From Acidobacteriota bacterium (GTDB taxonomy: Bacteria > Acidobacteriota > UBA6911 > RPQK01 > JAJDTT01), in NCBI GenBank assembly GCA_965217775.1, contig CBDCJH010000002.1, positions 1,472,001 through 1,536,000 on the forward strand: a stretch of 64,000 nt of DNA, given 5' to 3'. Below are positions 42,014-45,160 of the stretch, in pieces. The notes below the pieces were generated by a model, which ran no database searches, was not told where the DNA came from, and was given only the letters and a program-made list of their open reading frames with translations. The translations under genes were made by a program, and so were the position numbers. Position 1 is the stretch's first letter, and every line of letters begins with the position of its first letter.

Positions 42014-42788
42014 CTTTGGTTCCCCTCGTGTGAAAGAGAGCAGAACAATGCAATCGAGGCTTGCGCCAGCAACAAGGGGATCATGCCCGCTGTGGTCTTC
42101 CTCAGCCATCTGCTTTTATGGCTGGTGAGGCTTTCCATGATTCCGATCTCCTTGAGGTGACTCAGCCAGGCGTGGAAGACGCTTGCAGTCGCCGTCGAAT
42201 CGCCGGTCTCCTGCCCCCCGTGGAACATCCCCACAGAGGGCAGGAGGTACGTATCAATGAATGTGAATTTCTCGCCGGAATCGGCTCACCGGGTTAACAG
42301 CCGGACAAGGGGCCACGTCTGGTGCGGGAAACCGGATGTCCATGGTCCGCTTTCGAGTCCGAAAATGTACTTTGTTCGTACTCGAGGGGACCGGGAGAAG
42401 GGGATTGTTACATTCTCGTACTCGTAGAGTCTTCAACCGACCTCGGGTCGGGCACGGGAACTCTGCTCATGGCTGCCGCTCAGGCCCTGACGCAGCGAAG
42501 CGAAAGAGATTCCAGGCCACGCAGCACGATGCTATTGCGAAAGCGTGGCCGCTCGTTGAGAAGATTGATCTGCGGGAAGCGTTCGAGCAGTGTCTCCAGG
42601 ACGATCCGGCCTTCGAGACGCGCCAGAGGGGCGCCCAGGCAATGATGGATACCGCGTCCGAATGCCAGGTGGTTTCCTTCTCCGCGCTCGAAATCGAGCC
42701 TGTCAGGGTTCTCAAAAACATCCGGATCCCGGTTGGCCGCGCCGAGCAGGACGACGATGTTCTCGCGCTCACGCAAAGGGAAACCGTT

Positions 42789-44032
42789 GGGGATTATATA
42801 CGTAAGTGCCGAGAATTCAGGCTGATGGGTTACAATTCCGACCATGAAAGGCCACGCAACTATCCAGTGCAGAGCCAAGCTGTCCAAGGGTGGAATCCGG
42901 CGGTTGGACCGGGTGAGGTCCATCCTGAATCGGCTGTACAACGCTGCACTGGAGGAACGCAGAACGGCCTGGGAATCCGAGCAACGCGGCGTGACCCTGT
43001 ACGATCAGATGAAGGGGTTGACCTCCCAGAGGAAGGACGATCCGGAGGGGCTCGGGTCGGTGGCGGTCAAAGCGGAGCGTGGGATGTTGATGCGGTTGGA
43101 CCGGGCCTTCAAGGCGTTCTTCCGTCGCTGCAAGGCGGGGGAGAAGCCGGGGTATCCTCGATTCCGGCCCATTGCGAGGATGGAGACCATCGACGTCGTC
43201 GACCCGAAGGCGACCCTGGTGAAGAAGCGCGCTCGGGGCTACGCCATCCGGCCCAAGGGCTTCCCGACGATCCGGATCTTTCCGTCCCGGCCGTTGCCGG
43301 ACGGATGCCCGTTGAAAGCGTTGCGGATTGTCCGCAAGCCGAACCGGGTGTATGTGGACCTGACCTACGAGGTGGAGAAGCCGCCGCTACCGAAATGCGA
43401 GTCTTCGGTAGGGATCGACCTGGGCGTCCGCAAGCGAGCGGTGCTGTCCACGGGTGAGAGGATCGAACGGAATAGACGGGACTGGGCGGGGATCCGAAAG
43501 CAGCAGAGAAAGGTCTCCAGGTGCAAGAAGATTTCCAAGACCAGACGGAAGCGGATCGTACAGCTATCTCGGCTCCGTCACCGGGAATCGGTCCGAAACC
43601 GTAATGCCTGCCATCGTCTCTCCAGCAGGATCATTCGTGAGCACGGTCTGATCGCTGTGGAGAAGCTGAACATCCAAGGGATGGTAACGAAGGGCTCGAA
43701 GAAGAAGGGGCTGAATCGAGAAATACTGACGCAATCATGGGGGCTTCTGCGGAATCAACTCCAGTACAAGGCAGAATGGGCCGGTCGGAAGTTCGTAGAA
43801 GTGAATCCCGCATTTACCTCGCAGGACTGCCACCGGTGCGGCGCCCGCCACGATCCAGGACGGAGCGAAACCTTCCGGTGCAGGGCCTGCGGACTTGGAA
43901 TGGACAGGGACCACAATGCCGCCCTGAACATTCTCAGGGCTGGGGTTCTTGCCCTGGGCACCGGAACGTATCTCGTTGGGGAAAGCGTGGTGCCAGAACT
44001 GTATGCCAAGGGCACTTAGGTATATAAGCCCC
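42789..44032 (+). mobile_element. Non-autonomous TIR element (IS1595/ISNwi-like ends) carrying only tnpB; 8-bp TSD AAACCGTT
   Basis: Left TIR GGGGATTATATACGTAAGTGCC (42789-42810); right TIR reverse complement GGGGCTTATATACCTAAGTGCC (44011-44032); AAACCGTT at 42781-42788 and 44033-44040. Confidence 0.9.
42844..44019 (+). CDS. tnpB: RNA-guided endonuclease TnpB (IS200/IS605 OrfB-like)
   Basis: LYNAALEER HTH, GEKPGYPRF, RuvC-I GIDLG, RuvC-II IAVEKL, zinc finger CHRC..CRAC, RuvC-III DRDHNAALNI. Confidence 0.95.
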   Translation: MKGHATIQCRAKLSKGGIRRLDRVRSILNRLYNAALEERRTAWESEQRGVTLYDQMKGLTSQRKDDPEGLGSVAVKAERGMLMRLDRAFKAFFRRCKAGEKPGYPRFRPIARMETIDVVDPKATLVKKRARGYAIRPKGFPTIRIFPSRPLPDGCPLKALRIVRKPNRVYVDLTYEVEKPPLPKCESSVGIDLGVRKRAVLSTGERIERNRRDWAGIRKQQRKVSRCKKISKTRRKRIVQLSRLRHRESVRNRNACHRLSSRIIREHGLIAVEKLNIQGMVTKGSKKKGLNREILTQSWGLLRNQLQYKAEWAGRKFVEVNPAFTSQDCHRCGARHDPGRSETFRCRACGLGMDRDHNAALNILRAGVLALGTGTYLVGESVVPELYAKGT

Positions 44033-45160
44033 AAACCGTTTACTTCGCAGTCCTCGAGCACGCGACGCATACTCATTTGTACCGGTGAGTCGAAGCGTAG
44101 CAGCTCCTCGACCGCCGCCGGAACCAAACTCGGATTCTCTCTAAGTTGTTGAAGCTGATCCGGATGACGCAAAAGGGCCAGCATGCTGTTGCCAATCATG
44201 TTGGTCGTGGTCTCATTGCCGGCAATCAGGAGCAGGCGCAGCATATTCAACGTTTCGCGCTCAGTCAGTTGGTTGCCCTCTTCCTCCGCTCGAACCAACG
44301 CGCTCACGATGTTGTCCTGGGGCGCCACGCGGCATTCCTTGATGATCGGCCGGAAATAGCCATCGAAGGCCTCGGAGGTGGCCTCGGCGACCGCGCGATC
44401 ACGGTCGTCTATCGTCGGCTCCAGAAGGCGCGCACGCTGATCCGACCAGATCTTGAATTGGGCGCGGTCCTTTGGCGGCACGCCCAGCATCTCGGCGATG
44501 ACGGTCACCGGCAGCGGTTGGGCCACTGCCTCCATGAGATCGAAGCCGGTGGGATCGTCGATGTCATCCAATAACTCCCCGAGAAGACTTCCGATGCGCG
44601 GCTCCAGGGCGTTCACGGCGCGTGAGATCGCCTTTGCGCGGATCGTTGCTGAAGCGCCTGTGGTCTCGCAGGATGGCATCCACGTCCGCGTGGCGCGTGA
44701 ACACCCAGGCATGCATCAGGCGGCTCCGGTGCACTGGGTCCCGTTCGCGTAGCGCCGCGTAGAGAGGATAGGGATTCTGAACGGTGCCGCTCGACAACGG
44801 ATTGTATGCGACACCGCTCTCCCAACGTTCACGCATGAGCATCGTGCGTGCGGCGACTGTCCGTATCGCGGTGCGAATTGCGTGTGTCATCGACCCCTCA
44901 GTGCGAGTATCCGAGTAAATCTTGCAAGGCGTTCCTGGCAGCCGCCAGGAATTTGTCTAATACAGGCATGCCGAAAGAAGCTTACACTTTTTGCCAAGTA
45001 TCGAGATCTTGCCAATATCACCCTCGATGTTGGCGATTTCTCGTCTGGCGGCCTTCCGGTTTTCGGGTCCCGGAAGTACGCCCGGGGGACCAGACTTCAG
45101 TGACTCCCACAGACTCATTGTTTCGGGCGATCGGTCGAATTTCCTGTCTTCAGAGGAGAC

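Follow-up and report, generated by a model that had tools for sequence, protein, structure and literature searches.

A tnpB element with IS1595-type terminal inverted repeats in an Acidobacteriota P450 gene, probably mobilised in trans

How does a tnpB gene come to travel between terminal inverted repeats (TIRs) and duplicated target sites, and what might the nuclease do for an element of that kind? Both questions were raised by one locus in a 64,000-nucleotide stretch of an Acidobacteriota genome (hereafter the window; assembly GCA_965217775.1, contig CBDCJH010000002.1). A sequence-only reading had described a 1244-bp insertion bounded by 22-bp TIRs and a perfect 8-bp direct repeat, and direct reading of the letters confirmed this description: the element spans 42789–44032 within a cytochrome P450 gene, and its left and right repeats are identical at 20 of 22 positions. 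Judged by eye, its tips fit the ISNwi1-type end consensus of ISfinder, and the element may belong to that group, for which a DDEK-type motif is also listed. The features of the locus are as follows.

42480–42788, minus strand: 3' part of the P450 gene, including the stop codon; matches the intact orthologues L186 and L187
42781–42788, no strand: left copy of the 8-bp target-site duplication; position 42780 is G and the first base of the duplication is A; a single copy stands at the empty site in two related genomes, G011 and G010
42789–42810, plus strand: left terminal inverted repeat, 22 bp; tip of the GGGGMTTATA type; 21/22 against the ends of a 1762-bp IS1595 element
42811–42843, plus strand: 33-nt leader from the left repeat to the tnpB ATG; no promoter recognised
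42844–44019, plus strand: tnpB, 391 aa, intact; has D192/E273/D356 of RuvC, and a zinc finger of the form CxxC...CxxC
43778–44032, plus strand: candidate omega-RNA scaffold, a conserved structured RNA region from the last ~80 tnpB codons to the element boundary
44011–44032, minus strand: right terminal inverted repeat, 22 bp; 19/22 against the ends of the 1762-bp IS1595 element
44033–44040, no strand: right copy of the 8-bp target-site duplication; would supply the first bases of the guide in the model (or, with its first base, part of the scaffold)
44033–44890, minus strand: 5' part of the P450 gene; carries a second lesion, a 110-bp deletion at ~44617–44624
44041–44052, plus strand: flank that would complete a putative guide of ~16–20 nt, by analogy with IS200/IS605 TnpB

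The only long ORF in the element, and the sole ORF with a family match, is tnpB, whose TAG stop codon lies inside the right inverted repeat and which ends 13 nt from the end of the element. A scan for sigma-70-like promoters and terminators, with a model that is uninformative for this phylum, returned no plus-strand site in the element. When the element ends (terminal 62 nt and 46 nt) were folded as DNA on both strands, hairpins were no better than those of shuffled sequences (z 0.29–0.45; 117–132 of 200 shuffles folded at least as well).

The encoded protein matched the Pfam models OrfB_IS605 (PF01385; E 9.7e-18, 65 bits against a cut-off of 30.5) and Cas12f1-like_TNB (PF07282; E 1.8e-25, 89.3 bits against a cut-off of 26.3), as well as the NCBIfam model guided_TnpB (NF040570; 215.9 bits against a cut-off of 100); the score with the NCBIfam model IS200_TnpB (165) was under its cut-off of 425. 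Residues D192, E273, D356, C329, C332 and C349 were invariant across eight aligned sequences, and C346, read directly in the window's TnpB, was replaced in one relative (L031). In an alignment to an ISDra2-like chain, the acidic residues fall in its GxDxG, xVExL and DRDxNAA motifs, and their equivalents are the catalytic residues of ISDra2 TnpB; a C4 zinc finger is present between RuvC-II and RuvC-III. The ORFs, profiles and alignment together bear out the earlier claim that the sole cargo is a full-length TnpB with its RuvC acidic residues and zinc finger. The best match among natural solved structures was ISDra2 TnpB (E 1.4e-32, residues 26–375), and the closest annotated TnpBs are of the IS200/IS605 type, from Deinococcus and Thermus, at 33–40% identity. 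In a tree built with a quick IQ-TREE search, the check that the sequence-only reading had suggested, the TIR-flanked TnpBs formed one clade, which reaches relatives at 43–45% identity. The 391-aa ORF and the D-E-D residues are kept in 10 of 11 full-length copies and dN/dS between tnpB subfamilies is 0.12–0.23; TnpB is under purifying selection, and these values argue against its being an inert passenger.

Further copies that share these ends but each have an 8-bp duplication of their own, which the earlier reading had proposed to look for, were identified both in the same genome and in four related genomes. The same genome holds 12 copies at 94–100% identity (11 full-length and one interrupted), all of them bounded exactly by the inverted repeats. 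The 8-bp duplication is perfect in 10 copies, matches at seven of eight positions in one and is absent from one, and the duplication sequence of every copy differs from all others. Given 12 copies with mutually different duplications in 11, the TIR and duplication pattern is far beyond chance. The same layout is common to every diverged subfamily, with protein identity between subfamilies of only 71–86%.

The uninterrupted P450 allele was found in the related genomes G011 (L186) and G010 (L187), where the site is empty, the flanking sequences from the two sides overlap in just one 8-bp copy and the P450 ORFs are full length (~420 aa). The claim that excision restores the P450 gene therefore stood in part: the junction equals the uninterrupted site of these two genomes, but the gene in the window would still be broken after removal of the element because 110 bp are missing from it between a pair of 8-bp direct repeats at ~44617–44624. 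A DNA contig in X2 that joins 42748 to 44090, with only 26 letters on its shorter side and an unknown stretch between, was not counted as an empty allele.

An IS1595-family DDE transposase with matching ends, also sought at the suggestion of the sequence-only reading, is encoded in the same genome by a 1760–1762 bp insertion sequence that is present in five copies with 22/22 inverted repeats and 8-bp duplications, and its 334-aa protein is intact in four of the five. This protein matched the Pfam model DDE_Tnp_IS1595 (PF12762; E 1.8e-38, 132.4 bits against a cut-off of 27) and the NCBIfam model NF033547 (177 bits against a cut-off of 75); its N-terminal zinc ribbon (PF12760) scored E 2.6e-5 and 24.5 bits, 0.9 below the cut-off of 25.4, and two CxxC pairs were read directly in the sequence. 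About 715 bp of unassigned DNA lie 3' of the transposase gene; a 127-aa ORF downstream of this gene gave no match in Pfam, and an Rfam search of the partner element (L072) at E values up to 1 found nothing. In a tblastn search against plasmids, no plasmid-borne transposase of the IS1595 family exceeded 44% identity to the partner enzyme, and these matches are annotated only as 'IS1595 family transposase', with no subgroup names.

The ends of the tnpB element match those of the 1762-bp element at 21/22 and 19/22 positions, compared with 17–19/22 for the other IS1595 relatives found. Similarity between the two elements is limited to the terminal 24 bp, with none internally, which fits the expectation if the ends alone are needed for recognition. 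Among the 27 tnpB elements examined, none contains a transposase gene; the two genomes analysed for transposase-bearing IS1595 elements yielded 15 of these, with repeats of at least 18/22 and duplications of at least 7/8. The shared ends, the multiple copies and the duplications support the earlier proposal of a non-autonomous IS1595-type element carrying TnpB, and they point to mobilisation in trans, most likely by the 334-aa transposase. Co-occurrence is suggestive only: the genomes richest in tnpB matches, G000 (16) and G010 (9), are both among the three searched genomes with several copies of the transposase at 98–100% identity, and in genome G006 the transposase was matched 12 times but no tnpB element was detected.

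A conserved RNA structure is predicted to cover the end of the tnpB gene. Synonymous-site differences drop from ~0.45 to 0.23 over residues 301–330 and to 0.13–0.19 over residues 361–389, and amino-acid differences are high in these same regions. Compensatory changes were seen in 17 of 50 pairs of the predicted structure, compared with 5.8 ± 1.9 in shuffles (0 of 500 shuffles reached the observed value), the structure having been predicted from the same 14 related sequences that were used for counting the pairs; controls with slid partners gave 1–5 pairs with compensatory changes. Paired cells made up 95.9% in the predicted structure and 89.7% in shuffles. One row of the RNA alignment (own_L014) aligns poorly over the first ~170 columns. 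The two best-supported hairpins lie at 43935–43956 and 43957–43994, and a long-range pairing is predicted between GGG at 43778–43780 and the terminal CCC at 44029–44031. This conserved, covarying structure is a probable omega-RNA scaffold. Rfam, searched at E values up to 1, gave no family match in 42700–44120. Contigs from two RNA libraries labelled sponge metagenome (X10 and X11) cover 42830–44036 and 42872–44036, with zero depth over 42400–42801, and two contigs run beyond the right end into other flanks; assembled contigs of this kind are no proof of transcription and reveal neither the ends nor the strand of an RNA, and a repeat with 12 copies might have entered these libraries as carried-over DNA.

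In IS200/IS605 elements, the guide of TnpB is taken from the DNA just outside the right end (PMC10711439). By analogy, the guide of the present element may consist of the duplicated 8 bp and the adjoining right flank, and because the candidate scaffold runs to the outer edge of the right inverted repeat, a transcript leaving the right end would carry this sequence.

The insertion sites of the tnpB elements share an oriented motif. A G immediately outside the duplication (−1) followed by an A at its first position was present on the left-end side in 23 of 24 tnpB insertions and, mirrored, on the right-end side in six of 24; these 24 insertions come from five related genomes and are treated as independent on the basis of their differing flanks, with kin possibly sharing history. 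In the 15 transposase-bearing elements the same motif was present on the left in five and on the right in four (Fisher p 4.4e-5 and 5.7e-7). The bias persists in tnpB subfamilies whose two ends read alike. Its orientation suggests a TAM-like filter linked to TnpB. Typical TAMs measure 4–5 nt, more than the one to two bases of the present signal.

We consider the best explanation, with a probability of roughly 0.88, to be a non-autonomous element of IS1595 lineage that carries TnpB as cargo and is mobilised in trans, with an omega RNA and a TAM and homing role for the nuclease; within this ensemble, we infer that the 334-aa enzyme is the one that acts in trans, that the structured RNA is an omega RNA, how far the guide reaches, and what TnpB does through a TAM and homing. 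In such a scheme, the 334-aa DDE transposase would recognise the shared 22-bp inverted ends of the tnpB element and make staggered cuts that give rise to the 8-bp duplications, and the element would then land in the P450 gene. The structured RNA would span the tail of tnpB together with the right inverted repeat, and the transcript exiting to the right would be guided by the duplication and flank. TnpB could then cleave the corresponding unoccupied site, whether excision has emptied it or it lies on a chromosome copy that lacks the element, and homologous repair of the cut site would restore the element. This defence would work only with a short TAM-like signal beside the target, namely the G outside and the A as first duplicated base, a requirement that would account for the near-constant presence of the signal on the left-end side of surviving copies.

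A more specific version, which we put forward tentatively and with some doubt, is that the right repeat forms the 3' end of the scaffold, the invariant A completes it, the rest of the duplication seeds the guide, and a TAM of one or two bases decides which insertions TnpB defends by homing. The invariant A is read as a scaffold base on the precedent of Yoon et al., who report that the RNA scaffold incorporates the duplication or the right-flank base. If this version were true, the nuclease would shape which insertion sites of an IS1595 element are seen, and would do so with a dependence on orientation that the transposase by itself does not generate, and the locus would offer direct natural evidence of the use of TnpB to a DDE transposon.

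The same insertions could also have arisen from IS1595-type mobilisation in which neither the retention of copies nor the choice of site involves TnpB, with the motif stemming from the transposase or from features of the left end, and with TnpB kept for host benefit, for regulation or by hitch-hiking with recent bursts. The transposase does appear to have some preference of its own: in the transposase-bearing elements nine of 30 ends read G-then-A, above the ~0.06 per end expected from composition (G 0.31 × A 0.19), and in both kinds of element the duplications are rich in A/T and have W as their second and seventh bases. In those elements, however, the motif falls about equally on the two sides, unlike its near-constant placement on the left in tnpB elements, which extends to subfamilies with ends that read alike; the low dN/dS and the 10 of 11 intact ORFs also speak for a retained function, and we regard a TnpB without such a part as unlikely.

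Less probable still, and in our judgement quite improbable, is that another enzyme moves the element, either one of the IS1595 relatives present, which are 52–67% identical, or a transposase since lost or located on an unsampled replicon. The partner transposase is not always present with tnpB elements: in G009 (the same genome as G003) five tnpB copies share 97–98% identity, and the sole IS1595 transposase detected is broken. G000 and G010 contain several diverged IS1595 elements whose tips are similar, and the inner repeats of diverged tnpB subfamilies match no transposase-bearing element examined. Against a different mover stand the closer fit of the window family's ends to the 1762-bp element than to any other relative, and the presence of this element, intact, in multiple copies and with 8-bp duplications, in both genomes that are rich in this tnpB family. 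A partner was also sought for the second repeat type, which starts GAGACGATTTCA; the ends in G035 (SAR202) do not match. That genome has two elements that are complete, and in it an IS1595-family transposase with a frameshift lies next to an ORF resembling a methyltransferase.

Finally, the scenario that the sequence-only reading had itself named as its refutation, a single insertion of an IS1341/IS605-type tnpB element (hairpin ends, Y1 TnpA) into an IS1595-type MITE with incidental TIRs, is hardly credible, for although the IS200/IS605-type affinities of the closest annotated TnpBs, ISDra2 among them, make an ancient capture of such a gene likely and the genome has three weak Y1_Tnp matches (39.2, 30.6 and 22 bits), the nearest of these is ~17 kb from a copy and none is inside or beside an element, a left interval of 33 nt and a stop codon within the right repeat leave no space for IS605 ends, the ends fold no better than shuffles, the limits of all 12 copies coincide with the repeats, with 8-bp duplications as tallied above, the layout is common to subfamilies at 71–86% protein identity, and the TIR-flanked TnpBs form one clade.

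The implied novelty of the arrangement was overstated in the sequence-only reading, since TnpBs associated with DDE transposases and flanked by inverted repeats, together with solo copies moved in trans, were described by Altae-Tran et al. (2023, PNAS, PMC10691335); the locus is a clean new example of arrangements reported since 2023, not a new class. These authors defined the DDE-transposase-associated TnpB branches DDE-1 to DDE-6 and reported solo TnpBs with ends that hardly differ from those of an element encoding a transposase, a pattern that implies trans mobilisation. The present element likewise has its TnpB within inverted repeats, the 3' end of the gene near the end of the element (13 nt here, 'within 250 bp' in that paper) and the ends of a transposase-bearing element on solo copies, and one passage of that paper may be likened to the G-then-A motif seen here. 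In that study a transposase was counted if it lay within 1 kb of tnpB and, in the parts of the paper available to us, the partner named is IS630 and IS1595 occurs only within the SI list of transposase profiles; here, in contrast, the partner is an IS1595 element and none of 27 elements carries a transposase. The window's TnpB may belong to one of the six branches. A review (PMC13565253) names ISL2, IS630 and IS1031 as partner families of TnpB in its available sections, and our literature search, which covered journals outside subscription, found no paper linking TnpB to IS1595.

With the IS1595 family as described (PMC8101967), the locus shares the 8-bp duplications, the repeats starting GG and a partner with DDE_Tnp_IS1595 and an N-terminal zinc ribbon, which in the sections of that source at hand is absent only from the IS1016 group; the element itself differs in having tnpB in place of a transposase. 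The same source did not recover ISNwi as monophyletic and places IS1595 as the prokaryotic relative of the eukaryotic Merlin superfamily. IS200/IS605 elements are characterised by hairpin ends, insertion 3' of a fixed 4–5-nt motif, and the lack of inverted repeats and duplications (PMC13565253). The window element resembles the IS1341-type/ISDra2 module in its nuclease family, similar size, structured RNA from the 3' end of the gene to the right boundary and lack of a transposase, but unlike IS200/IS605 it has 22-bp repeats, 8-bp duplications (11 of 12 copies), no hairpin ends and no fixed 4–5-nt insertion motif. Like MITEs, it is multicopy and has only the terminal repeats and duplication length in common with an autonomous element in the genome; unlike them, it is not a deletion derivative of its partner, with which it shares no internal similarity, and it carries a conserved, selected protein gene.

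Fanzor proteins, the eukaryotic homologues of TnpB, were reportedly noted in TIR/TSD cut-and-paste transposons by Bao and Jurka in 2013. Fanzor in such transposons was also treated by Yoon et al. (2023, NAR, PMC10711439). The parallel lies in a nuclease captured by a DDE-type transposon with repeats and duplications, and in a guide RNA that would end at or over the repeat. The present case differs in its bacterial host, in its compact 391-aa ISDra2-like TnpB without Fanzor insertions, and in its variable 8-bp duplication, of which at most the first base could be fixed in the scaffold. A compact nuclease with a possibly very short TAM may interest genome editing. According to a 2026 review (PMC13565253), associations of TnpB with transposons excised through double-strand breaks are rare in prokaryotes, and its authors ask whether such transposons gain anything from the nuclease. 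To that question this locus brings a natural system of unusual completeness: a strictly non-autonomous tnpB element that looks active, the likely source of its transposase within the same genome, sister genomes in which the site is empty, a candidate guide-RNA scaffold that shows covariation and extends into the inverted repeat, and an oriented motif that its transposase-bearing relatives lack.

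The insertion in the P450 gene is a 1244-bp block with a 22-bp inverted repeat at either end, the two agreeing at 20 of 22 positions. A perfect 8-bp direct repeat flanks the block, which carries tnpB as its sole substantial open reading frame (ORF). Re-reading of the sequence bore out the sequence-only reading, which had described the element in these terms. The features of the window discussed here are as follows.

42781–42788: left copy of the 8-bp direct repeat (target-site duplication)
42789–44032: tnpB element, with an inverted repeat at each end
42844–44019, plus strand: ORF of 391 aa, tnpB
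43778–43780: GGG, predicted partner of the CCC at the end of the right repeat
43935–43956: first of the two best hairpins of the candidate RNA
43957–43994: second of these hairpins
44033–44040: right copy of the 8-bp direct repeat
44617–44624: second lesion in the P450 gene (P450 on the minus strand)

The 391-aa product is a TnpB, as it matches the Pfam models OrfB_IS605 and Cas12f1-like_TNB and scores 215.9 bits against NCBIfam guided_TnpB (cut-off 100); its best natural relative of solved structure is ISDra2 TnpB (E 1.4e-32, residues 26–375). The ATG follows the left repeat after only 33 nt, and the right repeat contains the stop codon. The protein is under selection: dN/dS is 0.12–0.23 between tnpB subfamilies that are 71–86% identical in protein, and eight sequences, extending down to 46% identity, show no variation at the catalytic residues or at three of the four zinc-finger cysteines.

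The window corresponds to G000:C2:1472001-1536000, and a search of its whole genome (G000) identified 11 full-length copies of the element with 94–100% identity, one further copy interrupted by ~160 bp, and four other relatives that are diverged or truncated. The 391-aa ORF and residues D192, E273, and D356 are intact in 10 of the full-length copies; the body of the eleventh is 21 bp longer and its frame is broken. Among the 12 close copies, the duplication is a perfect 8 bp in ten, 7/8 in one, and absent in one, and all of the duplications differ. In the split copy (G000:C2:4647309-4648714) the ~160-bp insertion lies at element position 1025. The copy lacking a duplication (G000:C2:1186780-1188023; 3/8 bases match) is full length and intact, and the loss likely reflects recombination between two copies or an element-adjacent deletion. 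A target duplication is also absent at L016 (G000:C2:4150407-4150849) and at L025 in the related genome G010, two loci with identical flanks; the element is full length at L025 and internally deleted at L016, where the left repeat is joined directly to the final ~440 nt of the element, the candidate RNA region described below. In G000, inverted ends of the GGGGMTTATA type also occur in two diverged relatives, L013 (86% nucleotide identity) and L014, each with an 8-bp duplication of its own; the tie of this TnpB lineage to such ends thus predates the window's family.

Searching G000 with the end sequences resulted in five elements of 1760–1762 bp with 22/22 inverted repeats, each with its own 8-bp duplication. 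Relative to the tnpB element, their repeats show 1 difference over 22 positions at the left end and 3 over 22 at the right; beyond 24 bp, the two kinds of element are no longer similar. Their 334-aa protein, intact in four elements and frameshifted in the fifth, matches DDE_Tnp_IS1595 (E 1.8e-38) and NF033547 (177 bits), with a zinc ribbon match of E 2.6e-5 that is 0.9 bits below the cut-off. Going by the ISfinder end consensus, these elements may belong to the ISNwi1 subgroup. Three more IS1595-type elements with related tips are present in the genome. The family features listed in PMC8101967, namely 8-bp duplications, repeats starting with GG, a zinc finger, and a DDE_Tnp_IS1595 domain, are all found here. 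The sequence-only reading had interpreted the insertion as a non-autonomous IS1595-type element mobilized in trans and had proposed looking for tnpB copies with the same ends and different duplications, as well as for an IS1595 DDE transposase with matching ends. Both are present in G000 (12 close copies, 11 of them with their own duplication, and the five transposase-bearing elements), and we judge the interpretation to be right, with the 334-aa transposase as the enzyme that would move the tnpB element in trans.

One of the five partner elements, L072 (G000:C2:836929-838690), contains ~715 bp past the transposase gene (~1244–1962) without a Pfam or Rfam match, and a 127-aa ORF within it has, on visual inspection, a beginning similar to that of a DNA methyltransferase. 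In a 4449-bp element (G000:C2:321834-326282), an intact 293-aa methyltransferase-like gene with a DPPF motif adjoins a truncated IS1595 transposase, and a methyltransferase-like ORF also adjoins an IS1595 transposase at L199 in a SAR202 genome. The extra DNA of L072 may be a decayed passenger methyltransferase.

The uninterrupted P450 allele was found in two congeneric genomes, G011 (96–97% identity) and G010 (89–93%), in which the flanks abut with one copy of the 8 bp and the P450 ORF runs uninterrupted for ~420 aa. As G010 carries the same tnpB family elsewhere (97% identity), the insertion is polymorphic among close relatives. According to the sequence-only reading, excision of the element with one repeat restores the P450 frame; the predicted junction does have the single 8 bp seen in G011 and G010, but the gene stays broken by the second lesion, a deletion of 110 bp between identical 8-bp direct repeats. 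In the G011 orthologue (L186), these repeats are spaced 110 bp apart. The deletion shifts the frame, leaving the P450 a pseudogene with or without the tnpB element.

When one genome per species was scanned, close relatives (69–97% identity) were found only in four other Acidobacteriota genomes; all 18 such loci had the right-end motif, and 13 had the left-end motif close to the start. Among 31 relatives searched at E 1e-60 or better, the window's TnpB was detected in six, all of the window's genus, and in none of the 22 outside it; the IS1595 transposase was detected in 20. Judging by identical coordinates, four genomes carry two handles each (G010=G001, G009=G003, G008=G002, G011=G004). The most tnpB matches occur in G000 (16) and G010 (9), both of which have several copies of a 98–100% identical transposase, and G006 gave 12 matches to the transposase and none to tnpB. 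In G009, which has five tnpB copies, the only IS1595 transposase recovered is broken (57% identity, internal stop); the G009 elements may be orphaned, or their partner lost or unsampled. Four of these copies (L027, L029, L030, L032) are mutually 97–98% identical, and the fifth (L022) is 71% identical to them.

The best 80 metagenome loci were 29–55% identical to the window's TnpB over the best segment, and 60 of them, together with L036, were inspected for inverted repeats. Long clean repeats were seen in five: L105 and L106 (25/25; IS1595-like tip, duplication absent), along with L108, L109, and L036 (16–17/17; different tip, 6–7-bp repeats). L105 and L106 are one locus appearing in two samples, with a TnpB 43% identical to the window's. 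Eight other loci had 13–15 matches of 15–17, no duplication of at least 3 bp, and hairpin palindromes in four; these were taken as putative IS200/IS605-type ends. Neither kind of repeat was seen in the remaining 48 inspected loci. Whether the repeat-flanked TnpBs form a clade, also raised by the sequence-only reading, was answered by a quick IQ-TREE search of 42 rows, in which all 13 inverted-repeat rows fell into one clade (SH-aLRT 99) nested among 29 hand-picked repeat-free rows; five rows with internal stops (L110, L152, L173, L043, L070) were left out. Local alignment gave no inverted repeat for the nearest repeat-free loci (L142, L175, L124) or for L110, with scores of 17–19 versus 50 for L105.

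The target motif is orientation-specific. Motifs were counted from coordinates in the 24 of 27 tnpB elements with a duplication matching at least 7/8 (L024, L025, and C2:1186780 were dropped); these insertions come from five related genomes and were taken as independent since their flanks differ. A G precedes the left duplication copy in 23 of the 24, and A is the first duplicated base in all 24. G-then-A is found at the left-end side in 23/24 and its mirror image at the right-end side in 6/24 (Fisher p 5.7e-7), compared with 5/15 left (p 4.4e-5 against the tnpB left side) and 4/15 right for transposase-bearing IS1595 elements of G000 and G010, whose orientation was set by the transposase gene. 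Subfamilies in which both ends are alike over the first 10–13 nt keep the bias, so asymmetry of the repeats is an unlikely cause. A/T-rich duplications with W at positions 2 and 7 are common to tnpB and transposase-bearing elements, which fits a single transposase. G-then-A could represent a TAM, the short motif beside a TnpB target, together with a scaffold requirement, and would let TnpB re-cut empty sites so that copies are retained. Position +15, 7 nt past the right duplication copy, is G in 15 of the 24 insertions versus a genome G of 0.31, which may be chance among 24 positions.

A candidate guide-RNA scaffold overlaps the end of the gene. Between the end of the ORF and the right end lie 5–28 nt in each of the 15 elements examined (five genomes). 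Synonymous-site differences average ~0.45 over the gene and fall to 0.23 at residues 301–330 and 0.13–0.19 at residues 361–389, where amino-acid differences peak at 0.36–0.48. When the final 270 nt of 14 elements were aligned (the own_L014 row poorly over the first ~170 columns), the resulting consensus structure had 50 pairs, with compensatory changes in 17. The structure was derived from the same 14 related sequences used for counting. None of 500 shuffles reached the observed fraction of paired cells (95.9% vs 89.7 ± 0.5) or number of pairs changed on both sides (17 vs 5.8 ± 1.9), and slid-partner controls gave 1–5 such pairs. The covarying structure extends into the right repeat; the predicted GGG–CCC pairing there is invariant and hence uninformative. 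The candidate region had no Rfam match. Contigs of two RNA libraries cover the element and not the left P450 flank, and some exit the right end into other flanks, a weak hint of expression; contigs cannot establish transcription. The structured RNA would be the omega RNA, the guide RNA of TnpB, with a guide starting with the duplicated bases.

IS1595 was not found as a partner of TnpB in the literature searched, and the window's TnpB lineage may already fall within a branch of Altae-Tran et al. (PNAS). A 2026 review names ISL2, IS630, and IS1031 as DDE partners of TnpB and describes the association as rare (PMC13565253). For IS607 and eukaryotic transposons with terminal inverted repeats, Yoon et al. 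(2023, PMC10711439) show that the scaffold of the guide RNA incorporates the right-flank base or the duplication. The tnpB element belongs to the kind of association described in 2023, and its value lies in the completeness of the natural system.
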